Shown here piece by piece: positions 4,393-19,719 of a stretch of 43,157 bases of DNA. Source of the DNA: Escherichia phage vB_EcoS_MM01; sequence record MK373793.1, one strand, 5' to 3'. The translations under genes and the position numbers were made by a program. Numbering within the stretch: the first letter of the stretch is position 1; every line of letters starts with the position of its first letter. The notes beneath the pieces were generated by a model. It was not told where the DNA came from. It searched no databases and worked only from the letters and a program-made list of their open reading frames with translations.

Positions 4393-5958
4393 ATGTCTTT
4401 AGTATGGGAAGAAATGACCATTCAGGAGAAGATGGCGGTTAAGGCTATATCAGAACACAGCTTCGAGGGATTCCTTAGGTGCTGGTTCCAGATTACTCAA
4501 GGCGAGCGGTATATCCCGAACTGGCATCACAAGTATTTGTGCAGAATCATTGACGAGATTATCGCTGGAGAGCGCAAGGACACCATTATCAATATAGCAC
4601 CTGGTAGCGGGAAGACAGAGATCGCATCAATACATTTCCCAGCCTACTCAATGGTTAAATTGAAGAAGGTAAGGAACCTTAACATCTCCTTTGCCGACTC
4701 CCTGGTTAAGCGTAACTCTAAGCGAGTTCGAGACCTTATCAAGTCGGCAGAATTTCAGGCGCTATGGCCTTGCAAGTTTGGAACATGCAAAGATGATGAA
4801 CTTCAGGTTCTTGATGAGAGTGGCAAGGTTAGATTTGAGTCAATATCAAAGGCGGCTGGGGGTCAGATTACTGGTGCGCGTGGTGGCTATATAACTGAAA
4901 AATATAGCGGTGCTGTGCTATTAGATGATTTTGACAAACCCGCAGATATGCTTTCACCAGTTTATCGAGCCAATAATCACGTAATGCTGAAAAACACCAT
5001 TCGCTCTCGTCGCGCTAGCTCAGTAAAAGGTAAGGCCACGCCAATCATTTCTATACAGCAGCGCCTGCACGTTAATGACTCAACATGGTTCATGATGGAA
5101 GGAGGGATGGGTATCGACTTTGATTTGATTAAGATACCTGCATTGGTAACTGAGGATTACATCGACACGCTACCTGACTGGATTAAAGAGCAATTTGCAG
5201 AGGATGTACTAAGCAGCGAATACATTGAGCGAGATGGAGTAAAGTACTACAGCTACTTTCCTAAAAAGGAGTCAGTAAGCGACCTGGTTGCGATGTGGGA
5301 TAGTGACTCTTACACTTTCCTTAGTCAATATCAGCAGGAACCTGTAGCGCTAGGTGGCAACCTCATTAACGTGGATTGGTTCCAGCGCATTAGCGACACG
5401 TTCAGACCTCCTGCTAAGTACGATTATCGATTCATAACTTGCGATACAGCTATGACTACAAAAAGTTATAGTGACTTCTCTGTACTTCAGCTGTGGGGAT
5501 ATAAAGATGCTAAGATTTACCTTATAGACCAGCGTCGCGGCAAATGGGAAGCACCAGAGTTGGAGGCAGAACTACTGGACTTCGAGAAGAAATCAAGGGC
5601 AACCAGTCAATCAGATGGCATCCTTCGAAAGATTATCGTCGAGAAGAAAGCATCTGGTATCGGCCTAATTCAATCAGCGAGTCGAGTTATGCGCACACCA
5701 GTAGAGCCTTACACACCGGATAAAGACAAGTTGACAAGGGTAATGAGTGCGCTGCCACAGATTAAGGCTGGTAACGTAGTTCTTCCTGAGTCTGCGACAT
5801 GGTTAAGCGGATTACTTACTGAGATTGCGGCATTTACCGCTGACGATTCTCATAAACATGATGACCAAATTGACTGTCTAACAATGGCGGTAAACCTGGT
5901 ACTTAACATTGTGGACGATCCCAAGTCTCGACTAATGCGCATAGCGGGAATTAAATAG
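4393..5958 (+). CDS. terL: terminase large subunit
   Basis: 521 aa; Walker A PGSGKTE, Walker-B-like VLLDDFD, C-terminal nuclease-like acidic residues. Confidence 0.85.
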   Translation: MSLVWEEMTIQEKMAVKAISEHSFEGFLRCWFQITQGERYIPNWHHKYLCRIIDEIIAGERKDTIINIAPGSGKTEIASIHFPAYSMVKLKKVRNLNISFADSLVKRNSKRVRDLIKSAEFQALWPCKFGTCKDDELQVLDESGKVRFESISKAAGGQITGARGGYITEKYSGAVLLDDFDKPADMLSPVYRANNHVMLKNTIRSRRASSVKGKATPIISIQQRLHVNDSTWFMMEGGMGIDFDLIKIPALVTEDYIDTLPDWIKEQFAEDVLSSEYIERDGVKYYSYFPKKESVSDLVAMWDSDSYTFLSQYQQEPVALGGNLINVDWFQRISDTFRPPAKYDYRFITCDTAMTTKSYSDFSVLQLWGYKDAKIYLIDQRRGKWEAPELEAELLDFEKKSRATSQSDGILRKIIVEKKASGIGLIQSASRVMRTPVEPYTPDKDKLTRVMSALPQIKAGNVVLPESATWLSGLLTEIAAFTADDSHKHDDQIDCLTMAVNLVLNIVDDPKSRLMRIAGIK

Positions 5959-5970
5959 CCGTGATAAACT

Positions 5971-5992
5971 AGCCCCTACATGGGGCTTTTTA
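5971..5992 (+). terminator. rho-independent terminator
   Basis: agcccc-taca-tggggc hairpin then T run. Confidence 0.5.
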
Positions 5993-6005
5993 TTGGAGAA
6001 ATGCA

Positions 6006-7274
6006 ATGGTAAAAACAGACAGCTACGCCAATATCTTTCTTGGCGGTAGTGATGGCAGTGAGATTTACGGGAGTTTAAATAACCAGACGCCTTCAATGCT
6101 GGCTTCTCTTTATGCTGATAATGCGCTGGTTCGTCGAATTATTGACACAATCCCAGAAACAGCACTAGCGGCAGGATTCCACATTGATGGTATTGATGAC
6201 GAGCCTGCATTCTGGTCGCGCTGGGATGGTTTGGAAATGACGAAGAACATTAACGATGCATGGTCATGGGCCAGATTGTTTGGTGGTTCCGCAATTGTTG
6301 CTATCGTTAAGGACAATAGAGCGCTAACAAGTCCGGTCAGAGAAGGTGCCGAACTTGAAACGGTTCGCGTTTACGACCGCACGCAAGTAAAAGTACAGAC
6401 CCGCGAAGAGAATCCACGCAACCCACGTTTTGGCAAGCCACTGACCTATCGCATTACCACTAACGAAAGCGATATGTTCTATGACGTTCATTATAGCCGG
6501 ATTCACATCATCGATGGCGAGAGAGTGCCTAACGCAATGCGCCGACAAAATGATGGGTGGGGCCGCAGTGTGCTTTCCAGTGATATTCTCGACTCGATTA
6601 AGGATTACACCAACTGCGAGCGACTTGCTACACAATTACTGAGACGCAAGCAGCAGGCTGTGTGGAAGGCGAAGGGTCTGGCTGAGTTGTGCGATGATAG
6701 CGAAGGGTTTGGTGCTGCAAGATTGAGACTGGCACAGGTTGACAACAATAGCGGCGTAGGTCAAGCAATTGGTATTGATGCCGAATCTGAAGAGTACAGC
6801 GTTCTTAACTCAGATATTGGCGGTATTGATGCGTTCCTGGATAAGAAGTTTGACAGAATCGTTGCGCTGAGCGGCATTCATGAAATCATCCTGAAGAACA
6901 AGAACGTCGGTGGCGTATCATCTAGCCAGAACACAGCGCTTGAGACATTCCATAAGTTGATTGACCGTAAGCGCAATTCTGAACTACTGCCTATTCTTGA
7001 GTTCCTAATCCCGTTCATCGTAAACGCGGAAGAGTGGTCAGTTGAGTTTAACCCGTTGGCACAGGAATCAAGTAAGGATAAAGCAGAAGTTCTGGAAAAG
7101 AACGTAAACAGCATTGCCGCACTAATTGCAGCCGGAGCTATGGATACGAACGAAGCACGTGACACACTACGCACTATCGCACCAGAGATTAAGATTGGTG
7201 ATAATGATATTCAGGCCGAGGAATCGGAGTTAATTACAGAGACAGAGGTTGTTAATGAAGAAATTGCGATATGA
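6006..7274 (+). CDS. portal protein (putative)
   Basis: 422-aa ORF directly after terL; canonical gene order. Confidence 0.65.
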   Translation: MVKTDSYANIFLGGSDGSEIYGSLNNQTPSMLASLYADNALVRRIIDTIPETALAAGFHIDGIDDEPAFWSRWDGLEMTKNINDAWSWARLFGGSAIVAIVKDNRALTSPVREGAELETVRVYDRTQVKVQTREENPRNPRFGKPLTYRITTNESDMFYDVHYSRIHIIDGERVPNAMRRQNDGWGRSVLSSDILDSIKDYTNCERLATQLLRRKQQAVWKAKGLAELCDDSEGFGAARLRLAQVDNNSGVGQAIGIDAESEEYSVLNSDIGGIDAFLDKKFDRIVALSGIHEIILKNKNVGGVSSSQNTALETFHKLIDRKRNSELLPILEFLIPFIVNAEEWSVEFNPLAQESSKDKAEVLEKNVNSIAALIAAGAMDTNEARDTLRTIAPEIKIGDNDIQAEESELITETEVVNEEIAI

Positions 7275-8364
7275 CAGTGCGAAGGTGAAAGCCAGATTTG
7301 ATGAAAACGGCTTTCTGGTTGATACCCCGATTGTTGCGCGTGTCGGGGTGCAAACCTACTACCTTCCAGACGGCACAGAACGAAGAGAATTTAGACCAGC
7401 CTCAGAGGTATTTAAACCTGATTCTCTAGCAAGTTATCAGGGCAAGCCAATTACCTTAGGTCATGTGTTTGTTAACTCTGAGAATGCCAAAGAGGTAGTT
7501 GTTGGTGCGGTATCTGGGTCAGCTATGCGTGAGGACTCGAATGTCATTGTTCCTCTAACTGTTTACGACAAGGAATCCATCGAGAAGGCGAAATCCGGTA
7601 TTGCTGGTGAGTTATCTGTAGGCTACTCAACTGTTGATATTGATTCGAAGGGGTGGGGTAGCAATGAAACTGGCGAGTATAAGTTGGACGGAGAATACCA
7701 ATCACAGGACGAAATCCCTTCTGATTGGGTTAGATTCGACGCTCTGCAAACTGAAATCAAAGTAAATCACGTCGCACTTGTCTATCAAGGCCGCGCGGGA
7801 GTAGCCAAACTTAATTTTGACGCTCAGCAGGAAAACCCGTATACTGACAGCGTTGATTCTATTAAAGAGGACGTAAAAGAAATGGTTAAGATTAAACTCG
7901 ACGGCGCTCAGGAGTTTGAAATTGCTCCCGAAGTCGCCGCTCACATTGAAGCAGTTAAAGCTGACTCCGCAAAAGAAAAGGCAAAAGCTGATGCACTGGA
8001 AGCTGAGCGTGATGCGCTTAAAGCTAAAGTTGATGCAATGCCATCAGAAATCGAGAAAGCAGTTGCTAAGGCGAAAGCTGACGCAGACGCGCTCGCAGCT
8101 TTGGTTGCTGTTGCTGCTGAAGCTGGCGTTAAAGCTGATGGTCTGGATGCTAAAGGCATTAAAGTAGCTTACGTTAAAGAAGTCTCTGGCCTGGATGTTT
8201 CTGAGAAATCTGACGCGTATATTGATGCAGCGTTCGACATTGCCAAAGAATCTGATAAAATGGCTGAAGTTCGCAAGGCTACCGCAGCCTCTGATAAATC
8301 TGACAGCAAAGACGAAGTTAAGGTTTTGAACCCGCGCGCTCGTCTGGCTAAAATTAAAAAATAA
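7255..8364 (+). CDS. head scaffolding / prohead maturation protein
   Basis: internal ATG of track ORF 7249 (track start TTG); C-terminal third is Ala/Lys/Glu-rich coiled-coil typical of scaffolds. Confidence 0.5.
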   Translation: MKKLRYDSAKVKARFDENGFLVDTPIVARVGVQTYYLPDGTERREFRPASEVFKPDSLASYQGKPITLGHVFVNSENAKEVVVGAVSGSAMREDSNVIVPLTVYDKESIEKAKSGIAGELSVGYSTVDIDSKGWGSNETGEYKLDGEYQSQDEIPSDWVRFDALQTEIKVNHVALVYQGRAGVAKLNFDAQQENPYTDSVDSIKEDVKEMVKIKLDGAQEFEIAPEVAAHIEAVKADSAKEKAKADALEAERDALKAKVDAMPSEIEKAVAKAKADADALAALVAVAAEAGVKADGLDAKGIKVAYVKEVSGLDVSEKSDAYIDAAFDIAKESDKMAEVRKATAASDKSDSKDEVKVLNPRARLAKIKK

Positions 8365-8374
8365 GGAGTCCTAA

Positions 8375-8872
8375 ATGGCAATTCGTTCCGTAGCTCTGGC
8401 AGGCATGGTAGCTGATACTTCCCTGTATAATATTGATGGTGCTTGCGTAGTTGGTGGCTCTGCTGCAATTCCGGTTGGCACAGTAGTAACCGTTAGCCCT
8501 GATCCATTAATCGATGGTCACAAGGTTGTTATTGCTGGCGCATCCGCTACTCTCCCTGCTTATGGTGTGGTTGTTAAATCTCATTATGAAACTCCTGACG
8601 GTACCGCTAAAACTCAGGAAGCAGTTAACGTAATGACAAACGGCAGAATCTGGGCAAGAACAAACCTTTCTGCAAAGCCAACTTTCGGTAGCGCTGTTTT
8701 CGTCAATAGTTCTGGTCTTATTGTAGCTGGCCCAGCAAGTGACACCGTTTTCGATACTGGCTTTACCTTCGCTGGTGGTTTTGCTACTGCATACACCGCT
8801 AGTGCAAACCCAATCAAGCAAGATGAGTCTGTTGATGGCAACATCGTAGAGATTCAGGTTAAGCAGAAATAA
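8375..8872 (+). CDS. head-associated structural protein (decoration-like, putative)
   Basis: 165-aa Gly/Ala/Val-rich ORF between scaffold and capsid genes; function by position only. Confidence 0.35.
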   Translation: MAIRSVALAGMVADTSLYNIDGACVVGGSAAIPVGTVVTVSPDPLIDGHKVVIAGASATLPAYGVVVKSHYETPDGTAKTQEAVNVMTNGRIWARTNLSAKPTFGSAVFVNSSGLIVAGPASDTVFDTGFTFAGGFATAYTASANPIKQDESVDGNIVEIQVKQK

Positions 8873-8875
8873 AAA

Positions 8876-8896
8876 CAGGCCCTTAGGGGCCTTTTT
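8876..8896 (+). terminator. rho-independent terminator
   Basis: aggccc-ttag-gggcct hairpin plus T run. Confidence 0.6.
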
Positions 8897-8910
8897 AGTG
8901 AGGTTATTTT

Positions 8911-9471
8911 ATGTTATTCGAAAAAGAAGTAGAAGTTGCGAACCTTGGTTATAATTCTGGTAATTCCCTTATTGATCAGGTTAATGAAGAATTATCAAAT
9001 CTTGTTGATTCAGGTTATAAATTTACATACAACTTCAGAAATGAATTGGATATTTCCTATTGGGAGATTGGTAATCAAAAGACAGGTCTAGTTGAATTAT
9101 CTGGTTTGGCAGTTAGGCATTTAGGGCTTTCAAAGAACGGTTTTAATGAGTTATCAGAGATTAAGATTTTCTCTTTTGAGTATGGCGTTGATTACTCTAC
9201 TGATGATGATATTGCTCGCATTACTGATGAAATTTTCGACAAAAAAGGGTACGTGCCATTATCTAGCAAGCTATTCAGTGCTACCATAGTTGATGAGTCA
9301 AACAAAACAAAACGCTCAGTATTGGAAGGTGGAAAGTATGTAACATACTATTCACCATCATACAAAAGAATTTTTATGTTGATAGCTGGGAAGCCAAAAA
9401 CAAAAGAACTAGAAACCAAAAAATCTGGATGGGCTTTGGTTAAGTATGAAGAAGTAGAAGCGCCAGAGTAA
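8911..9471 (+). CDS. orphan moron protein (186 aa), AT-rich
   Basis: ORF track; strong RBS; visibly lower GC than flanking head genes; bracketed by two terminators. Confidence 0.55.
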   Translation: MLFEKEVEVANLGYNSGNSLIDQVNEELSNLVDSGYKFTYNFRNELDISYWEIGNQKTGLVELSGLAVRHLGLSKNGFNELSEIKIFSFEYGVDYSTDDDIARITDEIFDKKGYVPLSSKLFSATIVDESNKTKRSVLEGGKYVTYYSPSYKRIFMLIAGKPKTKELETKKSGWALVKYEEVEAPE

Positions 9472-9476
9472 AATCA

Positions 9477-9499
9477 AACCTCCTTCGGGAGGTTTTTTA
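9477..9499 (+). terminator. rho-independent terminator
   Basis: acctcc-ttcg-ggaggt hairpin plus T6. Confidence 0.65.
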
Positions 9500-9554
9500 T
9501 TGCTAATTATCTGATACAATCATTAGGACTATTAAACAATATGGAGTAAATGAA

Positions 9555-11096
9555 ATGGCTTTAGAATTTAGGCAAATCCTTGCTGGTAACACAGCATCAC
9601 TTAGCCGTAAGGTGCTAGAGGCAATTGCGGAAGGTTGGCAGCCATTTGATAGAGTCCTGACCGGTACTGGATCTAATACCATTGGCATGGTTGTAGCCAA
9701 GGGAACCAATGCAGACATTACCGATTTCATGGTTCTTACTGCCACCAGTCGTCAAAAGCTAATTGATAGAGTAAACGATATCACTCACGAAGGTTGGGAG
9801 GTGTTTGGCGAACCGTCATCTGAGTCAAATCAGTTTGCAGTTGCGTTAACTAAAGGATTTCAGGGTACATCCGGTAGAGATGGAATGGCTGGCCCACAAG
9901 GTCCGCAAGGTCCGCGCGGAGAGGTTGGCCCAGAAGGTCCGCAGGGTCCAAAAGGTGACGATGGTACGCCTGGTGAAAAGGGTGAGCGTGGCGCTGTAGG
10001 TCCGCAAGGACCAATTGGCCCACAGGGCATTCAAGGTCCGCAAGGAATTCAAGGTCCAGCTGGCTTAAAGGGTGATAAGGGCGATAGGGGTGATGTTGGA
10101 CCGCAAGGGACGCAAGGATTAAAAGGTGATACTGGCGAGAAAGGAGACCCTGGCGAAGTCGGGCCTGCTGGTTTAACATTCCGTGGGCAATGGGTTCCTA
10201 GCACTGGTTATACAAAAGATGACACTGTAGTTTACGGCGGCTCAACCTACTTCGCAGTTAGCAACATTGCAGAAGATGAGGAACCTGGAGTATCACCTCT
10301 GTGGGTTGTTCTTGCCGCTCAGGGTACGAAAGGTGATAAGGGTGATAAGGGTGACCCTGGTGATATCGGTCCTCAAGGTGAAAAAGGAGAAACAGGACAG
10401 CAGGGCCCAAGAGGGGTTCAGGGGCAACAAGGTATTCAAGGTTTACCAGGCGAACAGGGGCCAAAAGGTGATCAAGGATTGCAAGGAATTACTGGACCAG
10501 CCGGTCCTCAAGGACCAAAAGGTGACACTGGACCTCAGGGTATTCAAGGTCCACAAGGGATTAGAGGGGTTGCTGGAGCGGTAGGACCACAAGGACCACA
10601 GGGAGAGAGGGGCGAAAAGGGCGATAAAGGAGAAAAAGGCGAAACTGGCGCAACCGGCCCACAGGGTCCAGCAGGTCAAAATAATACAAACAATCCAGTT
10701 TATACAACTCAACTTACCGTATCGACAAGCTACTCAGCTATAGCTATACCAAACAACCCTGGCATCTCTTTTTCAGTCAGAAGGGTTGGGAATAACATTG
10801 AGTACTCTTTTGTAGGCAACTCAATTGCAGGAAGGTATTTTGATGTTGAGGTTGTAAACTTTCCATCTGCTGACGTAGTTAAGAGATATCAGTCAAACCA
10901 CACAATTGCAGGAACTAGCAGGTATGTTGTAGGTGATCCTGCTGGTTATACTGGTGGTGGATATAAAAGAATTCAATTCTCAGCTAGAGATTGGGGAGAT
11001 AAAAACATTATAATGATTGATGTTTTTCACCTTCAGCGCCCAGCTGATACTAGTTTTAACATCGCAATTAGGATTGAGACATTCAAGCTGCCATAA
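9555..11096 (+). CDS. collagen-like repeat protein (putative head or tail fibre)
   Basis: 513 aa; two long Gly-X-Y blocks (approx. aa 107-196 and 248-360) flanking a globular insert, plus non-collagenous N- and C-terminal domains. Confidence 0.8.
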
Positions 11097-11174
11097 CATT
11101 AACGCCCGCCATTGCGCGGGCTTAAAACTCGTGTATAATGAACTCGTAAACTTGTTAACTAAAAGGATGATAAA

Positions 11175-12128: not shown

Positions 12129-12150
12129 GCCCTCTTCGGAGGGCTTTTTT
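12129..12150 (+). terminator. rho-independent terminator
   Basis: gccctc-ttcg-gagggc hairpin plus T6. Confidence 0.65.
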
Positions 12151-12467: not shown

Positions 12468-12489
12468 GGGCGCTTCGGCGTCCTTTTTT
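12468..12489 (+). terminator. rho-independent terminator
   Basis: gggcgc-ttcg-gcgtcc hairpin plus T6. Confidence 0.55.
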
Positions 12490-19194: not shown

Positions 19195-19719
19195 ATGGAA
19201 GAAATGCGTAGAGTTTGCAAGAAGTGCGGGGTAGAGAAGATTCATTCAGAGTTCGCAAAGCATAAGCAGTGCATGTTTGGTATAACTCATGAATGTAGAG
19301 TTTGTGCACTTAAGAGGTCTCAATACAGAACGCCAGATAAGCTGGCAATGAAATCAGAATACGACAAGAGAAGATATGAGAGAAGTTCAAAAAGGCAGAA
19401 AATAGATAGGGAATCTGACCCAGCGAAATACAAACTTTCAACATACAAAAGCTTTGATAAAAAGAGAGGTCTCAATTCTGACATAGACTACGAATTTGTT
19501 CTAAATGCAATAGATTCACCTTGCTTTTATTGCGGATTAAAAGATAAGCAAAATGTTGGGTTAGATAGAATTGAAAACTCAATTGGTCACATGAAGTCAA
19601 ACGTAGTTCCGTGTTGCTCATTATGTAACATGACAAGGGGTGATAGATTTACTCATGAGGATTTTAAAGAGTTTATAGCACCTTCAATAGCTAAATTTAG
19701 AGAGGCAAATAAATGCTAA
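19195..19719 (+). CDS. HNH endonuclease (free-standing, putative homing endonuclease)
   Basis: Cys-rich zinc motifs CKKCG...CRVC and HNH core CFYCG...GLDRIEN...GH...CCSLCN; AT-rich; inserted between M-like and L-like tail genes. Confidence 0.7.
   Translation: MEEMRRVCKKCGVEKIHSEFAKHKQCMFGITHECRVCALKRSQYRTPDKLAMKSEYDKRRYERSSKRQKIDRESDPAKYKLSTYKSFDKKRGLNSDIDYEFVLNAIDSPCFYCGLKDKQNVGLDRIENSIGHMKSNVVPCCSLCNMTRGDRFTHEDFKEFIAPSIAKFREANKC

Follow-up and report, generated by a model that had tools for sequence, protein, structure and literature searches.

Which kind of gene sits between two terminators among the head genes of Escherichia phage vB_EcoS_MM01, and what does it do there? The window analysed here is the complete genome of this phage (MK373793.1; 43,157 nt), a coliphage of the Drexlerviridae (Rtp/Rogue-like) whose nearest relatives in the phage collection are Rogunavirinae and Braunvirinae. 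The gene, MM01_00018, is an open reading frame (ORF) on the + strand that starts with ATG at 8911, stops with TAA at 9471, encodes 186 amino acids (aa) and is annotated as hypothetical; it lies downstream of a terminator that we call T_a and upstream of a second one, T_b. An earlier note on this DNA had stressed the lack of recognisable motifs, the AT-richness, the strong ribosome-binding site (RBS) and the flanking terminators, and had read them as the signature of a moron that could encode an accessory function expressed independently of the late structural genes. What is new here is that MM01_00018 belongs to a rare family in which a near-invariant C-terminal tail is carried by unrelated bodies, and that these bodies are exchanged as cassettes inside a capsid-decoration locus.

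A constant C-terminal tail on unrelated bodies

The ORF and its relatives matched no family in Pfam, PHROGs, NCBIfam or PADLOC, and no Rfam match was obtained either, which bears out the claim that the frame carries no recognisable motifs. Relatives are few. A word-indexed search of 5.8 billion proteins matched the ORF to itself alone, and an exhaustive HMMER search of 1.84 billion representatives returned six hits, which added e4/1c, P0004 and P0005 to the family. Two of the six were spurious: P0002 and P0006, giant repeat proteins, were rejected as repeat-inflated chance matches over 27-30 residues. A profile search found 12 family clusters among 5.8 billion proteins. Two types of body were distinguished, type A (175-186 aa; MM01, e4/1c, RobRod40, JulesPiccard, P0004, P0005 and P0007-P0010) and type B (121-131 aa; P0011-P0014). 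Type A members share 22-33% amino-acid identity with MM01, e4/1c being its closest homologue at 33-35%, and when the two types are compared with each other, hhalign aligns the last 21 columns only.

The shared C-terminal tail has 17 residues, KKSGWALVKYEEV(E/D)(A/S)PE, with variants only in P0010 (Q, I, I) and P0009 (L). In MM01, the tail KKSGWALVKYEEVEAPE and the stop codon occupy 9418-9471 (+ strand), and 13 family members, spread over two unrelated body types, carry the tail in near-invariant form. The variable body upstream of it, 169 codons at 8911-9417 (+ strand), has no DNA homology to any relative and constitutes the exchangeable cassette. The tail motif occurs a single time in the six-frame translation of MM01 and nowhere else in it, and comparison with the sequences of the PDB gave nothing comparable (E about 0.8). 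A degenerate pattern for the tail DNA retrieved e4/1c only from IMG/VR and nothing from the JGI metagenomes, and only four cultured phages carry a slot gene with the tail. Every member for which the context is available lies directly after a Drexlerviridae cement gene, about 40 nt downstream of it. The earlier note had counted conserved synteny, coupled with detection in the virion, against its own reading; synteny is indeed conserved throughout the family.

The tail is conserved as a peptide and the body is exchanged

Is the 3' end of the gene kept as DNA or as protein? Over the 17 tail codons of nine distinct loci, at least 18 synonymous changes were counted vs 3 conservative nonsynonymous ones. 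At the 13 invariant residues, where about 20% of the possible single-base changes are synonymous, at least 13 synonymous and 0 nonsynonymous changes were found; the chance of such a pattern is about 0.2^13, on the order of 1e-9, a figure that ignores phylogeny and rate heterogeneity. Since the variation is almost purely synonymous, we conclude that the tail is conserved as a peptide, not as DNA. On the same grounds, a conserved DNA or RNA element at the 3' end, such as a promoter or a stability element, was rejected.

The body is constrained as well. Between RobRod40 and JulesPiccard, its ratio of nonsynonymous to synonymous substitution rates (dN/dS) is 0.11 at a dS of 0.35, compared with 0.10 for the cement gene, 0.07 for the gene of the major capsid protein (MCP) and 0.06 for the protease gene. 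By this substitution pattern, the body is a working protein under purifying selection. Between MM01 and e4/1c, the bodies are 35% identical and dS is saturated, and the adjacent MCP is 97% identical at a dS of 0.45. The limits of homology are sharp on the right: DNA homology to tail-bearing relatives restarts at 9413-9418, the first tail codon, and homology to tail-less relatives restarts at 9469-9471, with the stop codon and the terminator. On the left, the limit falls within the 3' end of the cement gene (about 8793-8861) and the upstream hairpin, suggesting that the left recombination junction lies before the stop codon of the cement gene, inside the gene itself. These breakpoints indicate that the body is a cassette swapped by recombination between conserved flanks, the tail being part of the constant right flank.

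An optional slot between the cement and MCP genes

Comparison of the locus across related phages, which the earlier note had proposed, revealed an optional slot: the interval between the cement and MCP genes takes at least six configurations among the relatives. ACG-M12, CEB_EC3a and SU57 have an empty slot, the cement gene being followed at once by the MCP gene, while the collagen-like gene alone, adjacent to the cement gene, is found in UDF157lw, phiJLA23 and Jk06. A slot gene is combined with a collagen-like gene in MM01, e4/1c, RobRod40, Phagiculus and L009; it stands alone in JulesPiccard and L011-L015; it is accompanied by a GDSL hydrolase gene in L016, and by both a GDSL hydrolase and a collagen-like gene in L010. 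The collagen-like gene is thus itself optional, as it is not present in ACG-M12, CEB_EC3a, SU57 or JulesPiccard. In L010, a metagenomic Drexlerviridae contig, the three accessory genes are consecutive (6001-9511) and the first two are each followed by terminator and intergenic sequence of the T_b type, an arrangement that, from its sequence, looks like stacked cassettes. The slot of Phagiculus (L001, 3201-3692) holds an unrelated 163-aa ORF that lacks the constant tail and is without homologues in the phage collection, even though Phagiculus and MM01 share 94% DNA identity in their collagen-like and MCP genes.

Two isolates carry a single in-frame TAA in the slot gene, at codon 53 in e4/1c (L002, 3953-4534) and at codon 75 in JulesPiccard (L004, 3516-4058), the frames being otherwise intact. 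The records split both genes into two or three small ORFs, and bas03_0009, which lies in another frame than the slot gene, is probably a spurious ORF. The metagenome protein P0007 is an intact, near-identical copy of the JulesPiccard allele, and the frame is undisrupted over its full length in 11 independent copies from metagenomes and isolates, all metagenomic ones among them. The nonsense codons of the two isolates indicate that the slot gene is dispensable for laboratory propagation. What stands of the moron signature is an optional, dispensable insert of deviant composition that separates genes found side by side in relatives; the gene is not autonomous, the terminators appear to belong to the backbone (see below) and synteny is conserved.

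Terminators and transcription of the slot gene

Both flanking terminators were recovered by the terminator scan and by their folding energies. T_a (8877-8896, + strand) consists of the hairpin AGGCCCTTAGGGGCCT (8877-8892) and a T5 tract (-12.4 kcal/mol, z = -2.1), and T_b (9476-9498, + strand) of the hairpin AAACCTCCTTCGGGAGGTTT (9476-9495) and a T6 tract (-13.4 kcal/mol, z = -4.9), with a stability matched by 0 of 200 shuffles. T_a is kept in 5 of 5 aligned relatives, 8874-8897 being 100% identical in L014; the core of T_b is invariant in 5 of 5 relatives, and in empty-slot phages T_b lies directly 3' of the cement gene. Judged by this conservation, T_a reads as a backbone element and T_b as backbone or cassette boundary, both hairpins being kept whatever the slot contains. 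Terminator bracketing is not special to the ORF, since + strand terminators made of a hairpin and a T-tract follow most genes of the head module (hairpins at 5971-5987, 8877-8892, 9476-9495, 12129-12144 and 12468-12483). From this layout, the late transcript may be attenuated step by step and transcription re-initiated at internal promoters, of which the one before the MCP gene would be an example.

Is the slot gene transcribed from its own promoter? The gap between the T_a hairpin and the ATG measures only 18 nt, which are taken up by the T-tract and the RBS; a consensus-based scan for two hexamers detected no promoter-like site on the + strand between 8354 and 10985. With no room for a promoter and none detected, the ORF would be transcribed by read-through of the late head operon, and the idea of expression independent of the late structural genes is not supported. 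Translation signals are clear: the strong RBS of the earlier note corresponds to a Shine-Dalgarno sequence, GAGGT, at 8900-8904 (+ strand), 6 nt 5' of the ATG, with GGAGG at the equivalent place in relatives, and the RBS and start context of the slot gene are kept among them.

Two further elements were noted on the + strand in the variable locus. By its sequence and position, TGATACAAT at 9512-9520 is a putative extended -10 promoter for the collagen-like gene; it was missed by the two-hexamer scan, and a similar TGnTA(C/G)A(A/C)T occurs at the equivalent place in Phagiculus, UDF157lw, e4/1c and RobRod40. At the right end of the locus, a promoter-like TTGCGC-N16-TATAAT (11112-11139) lies 5' of the MCP gene and is kept in every configuration, including phages in which it comes directly after the cement-gene terminator. 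A GC-rich hairpin (11104-11121) overlaps the -35-like part of this element.

Composition and neighbouring genes

The marked AT-richness of the ORF was confirmed, with a G+C content of 0.342 vs 0.438 for the whole window, and 0.33% of 561-nt segments are equally AT-rich. At third codon positions, its G+C content (0.28) is near that of its neighbours (cement 0.33, collagen-like 0.32), indicating that the AT-richness stems mainly from codon positions 1 and 2, that is, from amino-acid composition; as evidence of foreign origin it is thus weaker than the raw G+C content suggests. No competing ORF of at least 40 aa is present on the opposite strand. Elsewhere in MM01, the G+C content falls to 0.36 or below solely at 19195-19719, where a 174-aa Cys-rich ORF with an HNH-type endonuclease motif, probably a homing endonuclease, lies inside the tail module.

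The head module is on the + strand and comprises the genes of the large terminase (4393-5958), the portal (6006-7274), the protease/scaffold (DUF2213; 7249-8364), the capsid cement or decoration protein that forms the left anchor of the slot (8375-8872), the slot ORF (8911-9471), the collagen-like protein (9555-11096) and the MCP (PF09950; 11175-12122). The library matches of these neighbours confirm the location given earlier, between the scaffold/decoration genes and the collagen-like gene. The cement protein matches Pfam PF22758 (Phage_cement, E = 1e-24) and the solved T1-type cement chain 9kmg (E = 1e-25 in the PDB sequence comparison). It has 165 aa vs 173-176 in relatives, and its C-terminus differs from theirs. 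The slot ORF matched neither PF22758 nor PF23982 in the Pfam scan, and none of the PDB sequences 9kmg, 9kmh and 9kzj, all three of which are matched by the neighbouring cement protein. All slot-family members are acidic, with isoelectric points (pI) of 4.7-5.2, as are the other head-surface proteins of MM01.

The collagen-like protein matches Pfam Collagen (E = 2e-36) and, in two stretches, DUF1737 (E = 2e-7), the two DUF1737 units covering residues of about 1-100. The protein probably serves as a head fibre or decoration. In a collagen trimer, the two DUF1737 units of each chain would add up to six, which would fit a six-fold hexon site. PHROGs and several GenBank records name the gene 'tail fiber' or 'DNA polymerase I', despite its N-terminal capsid-binding domain.

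Predicted structure and resemblance to DUF1737

Does the body resemble a known fold? An AlphaFold2 model of the MM01 ORF, built from an alignment of nine type A sequences, reached a mean predicted local distance difference test score (pLDDT) of 75.5 and a predicted template modelling (TM) score of 0.68, the body lying at a pLDDT of about 65-90. The elements of the body follow in the order strand 4-11, helix 17-33, strands 47-54, 61-74 and 81-91, helix 98-111, and two long strands, 122-139 and 142-162. The body is thus predicted to adopt an alpha/beta fold made of two halves, each with a helix and a beta-sheet. The tail (166-184) had a pLDDT below 50 and was modelled as disordered, and both the body fold and the disorder of the tail recurred in a second run, that of a fusion of the MCP, a linker and the ORF from paired sequences, in which the MCP half was itself not modelled (pLDDT 25-45).

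Among predicted viral structures (BFVD), the best non-self matches of the MM01 model were JK_26P of Jk06 and JLA_18 of phiJLA23, both weak (probability 0.95-0.96, TM 0.3-0.4). Both are Drexlerviridae tandem-DUF1737 collagen-like proteins, encoded just downstream of the slot. Profile comparison gave different answers for the two body types. With hhalign, 85 columns of the type B body aligned with the tandem-DUF1737 N-terminus of collagen-like proteins (probability 86%, E = 5e-6). With the tail removed, the type A body of MM01 and its halves were not significantly similar to DUF1737-type domains or to each other (probability at most 1.4%), and the ORF and eight relatives gave no hit to PF08410 (DUF1737) even at E = 10. 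In addition, the type A motif SSG[FY]K[YF] resembles SSGFQPYG of the tandem-DUF1737 proteins. The resemblance of type A to DUF1737, in topology, weak fold matches and motif, is suggestive only, and we did not file MM01_00018 under DUF1737, because the profile comparisons of its body type were not significant. The remote homology and structure searches called for in the earlier note thus ended in weak fold matches to tandem-DUF1737 proteins, with no significant profile match for the MM01 type of body.

A candidate accessory protein of the capsid surface

What do the other occupants of this interval do? In T1, the gene between those of the cement protein gp49 and the MCP gp47 encodes gp48, an accessory decoration protein seen by cryo-electron microscopy; gp48 and gp49 form 60 heterotrimers at the quasi-threefold axes, from which the C-terminal part of gp48 projects outward (PMC11945409). 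For phi24B, a preprint (10.64898/2026.04.10.717836) shows that DUF1737 binds the capsid: the domain occupies hexon centres as a hexamer and serves as the anchor of an esterase. Where tested or by homology, the occupants of the Drexlerviridae cement-MCP interval (gp48, tandem-DUF1737 collagen-like proteins and GDSL hydrolases) are capsid-surface decorations. The decoration locus of T1 (PMC11945409) points to a head-associated more than to a host-directed role.

We tentatively favour the reading that MM01_00018 is an optional, late-expressed and dispensable accessory protein of the head, most likely located at the capsid surface, in which an exchangeable body is joined to a constant docking tail. 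The gene, without a promoter of its own, would be transcribed together with the late head genes by read-through of the post-cement terminator, and its product would be made at a lower dose than the cement protein. The acidic body of 169 residues, predicted to fold as an alpha/beta domain, varies greatly and is replaced by recombination, and the apparently flexible 17-residue tail is near-invariant. The tail would then provide a constant contact with a conserved partner, the most probable candidate being the capsid shell (the MCP or the cement trimers), and the exchangeable body would face outward. Alternatively, the body may bind the hexon centre in the manner of a DUF1737 domain, the tail being displayed or clasping subunits. 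As the nonsense alleles of two isolates show indirectly, the protein is unnecessary for plaque formation in the laboratory; its value in nature may lie, for example, in particle stability or in adherence to mucus or other surfaces, roles that have been proposed for head decorations which are likewise dispensable.

One extension of this reading is possible but doubtful. The tail could be a portable docking peptide for the Drexlerviridae head, by which unrelated bodies are mounted on or loaded into the capsid and which, with T_b, would provide one of the two stretches of homology, T_a being the other, between which bodies are swapped by homologous recombination. Such cassette exchange would then amount to diversification of the capsid surface, following a logic like that of receptor-binding domain exchange on tail fibres. 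To our knowledge, cassette-exchange diversification of this kind has not been described for phage heads.

Several points weigh against placing the protein on the capsid. The searchable literature on MM01, e4/1c, RobRod40 and JulesPiccard yielded no proteomic or structural datum that places a family member in the virion. The sporadic distribution, low G+C content, fast turnover and loss in the laboratory fit a non-structural gene engaged in an arms race equally well. In addition, the slot and collagen-like proteins would compete in MM01 if both bind hexon centres.

The first alternative takes up this arms race: MM01_00018 would be a moron-type, non-structural gene whose product acts in the infected cell, in anti-defence or host takeover, with the tail binding a conserved E. 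coli protein and the body evolving against the host. We consider this rather unlikely, yet much of the evidence accommodates it. The gene is optional and sporadic, AT-rich, and subject to very rapid body turnover by cassette exchange; it carries nonsense codons in two laboratory isolates and none in the metagenomic copies; a host partner that is 100% conserved would explain the invariant tail; and the literature search yielded no sign of virion association. What argues for the head instead is that the gene, with neither a promoter nor space for one, depends on the late head operon for its expression and lies behind a terminator, and late expression is poorly suited to defences that act early. 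Moreover, its position is fixed in a locus whose other occupants are capsid decorations, and the type B body resembles a domain that binds capsids. The lack of any match in PADLOC or the other libraries points the same way, if weakly, as these libraries hold few anti-defence families.

Less probable still is a non-virion assembly factor, that is, a chaperone or dosage regulator whose tail would sit transiently on the procapsid or on decoration proteins and which would be gone from the mature particle. Its location and late co-transcription with the head assembly genes, a flexible conserved tail of the kind typical of transient docking, and purifying selection equal in strength to that on structural genes are all compatible with such a role. 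However, most relatives build the same heads without a slot gene, a chaperone serving a single client would hardly be expected to have unrelated bodies, and the slot gene occurs both with and without collagen-like and GDSL genes, which argues against a chaperone dedicated to these.

We regard as improbable that the protein is packaged as internal cargo, the C-terminal tail acting as a capsid-loading signal for variable proteins that are co-injected, as in the T4 internal proteins or with encapsulin cargo-loading peptides. A terminal, disordered tail would suit such a signal, and a constant peptide on polymorphic bodies, encoded beside the scaffold and MCP genes, follows the logic of the T4 internal protein locus. 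Yet family members are acidic (see above) and in this differ from internal proteins that associate with DNA, the type B body resembles a domain that binds the capsid from outside, and the proteins modelled in the structure of T1 are not reported to include any internal or ejection protein (PMC11945409).

Finally, the notion of a functionless, decaying remnant or recombination scar whose 3' end is mere backbone DNA by the terminator, to which the nonsense codons of two relatives and the great rarity of the family might point, is effectively refuted by the selection signatures, namely the body dN/dS of 0.11 and the at least 13 synonymous vs 0 nonsynonymous changes in 13 tail codons, together with the conserved RBS and start context, the 11 independent copies with intact full-length frames and an AlphaFold2 fold that was reproducible and confident from a nine-sequence alignment.

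If the capsid-surface reading is true, the heads of Drexlerviridae possess an accessory position open to exchange, which is filled differently in phages that are otherwise nearly identical. This would constitute a simple source of phenotypic diversity, in particle stability, adherence and perhaps evasion, in a family widely used for therapy and as a model (T1, BASEL collection), and a 17-residue tag able to dock arbitrary proteins on a T1-like capsid would be of use for phage display and engineering. Whatever the function, annotations can be corrected for the split slot genes of e4/1c and JulesPiccard and for the mislabelled tandem-DUF1737 collagen-like gene.

Comparison with known systems

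How does the slot family compare with systems already described? The morons of lambdoid phages, described by Hendrix and colleagues, are extra DNA between genes that are adjacent in relatives, with deviant base composition and a downstream terminator. MM01_00018 shares the inserted position, the deviant composition and the terminator downstream. It differs in having no promoter of its own, in that its terminators appear to belong to the backbone, and in its fixed homologous cassette site and conserved in-frame 3' end; MM01 is moreover a member of a virulent family, hence without prophage expression.

The T4 internal proteins offer a parallel to a constant short peptide on polymorphic, fast-exchanged bodies: their capsid-targeting sequence is joined to such bodies, which are encoded in a hyperplastic locus. 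In T4, the peptide stands at the N-terminus, where the prohead protease cleaves it, and the proteins are basic and internal, whereas the peptide of the slot family is C-terminal and its proteins are acidic. T4 Hoc and T5 pb10 are non-essential, late proteins that bind the capsid surface, are lost without a plaque phenotype and are thought to be relevant outside the laboratory. They are immunoglobulin-like domain proteins with defined capsid-binding domains, and sequence and fold comparison gave no similarity between them and the MM01 ORF; we know of no system of constant tail and variable body for decorations of this type.

DUF1737, as found in phi24B gp84 and the NanS-p esterases, is a small unit of a helix and antiparallel beta-strands that anchors variable cargo, an esterase or a collagen fibre, to hexon centres. 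A tandem copy is encoded in the gene just downstream of the MM01 ORF, type B relatives align with it, and the predicted topology of MM01, a helix and antiparallel strands twice over, is compatible with it. However, the MM01 type of body has no sequence or profile match to DUF1737 and is about twice as long per unit, and DUF1737 proteins carry the domain at the N-terminus and the cargo at the C-terminus, where the sole 'cargo' of the MM01 ORF is a 17-residue peptide.

The nearest counterpart by position is T1 gp48. Unlike the MM01 ORF, gp48 is a paralogue of the cement protein, with a cement-like N-domain and a Big2 domain, and assembles with cement into 1:2 heterotrimers; the MM01 ORF shows no similarity to the cement fold or PF22758 and has another predicted topology, and gp48 is not known to carry a C-terminal tail. 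What the two have in common is the phage family, the same cement-MCP interval and their optional presence among Drexlerviridae, and in the case of gp48 the product of this interval has been shown to sit on the capsid surface.

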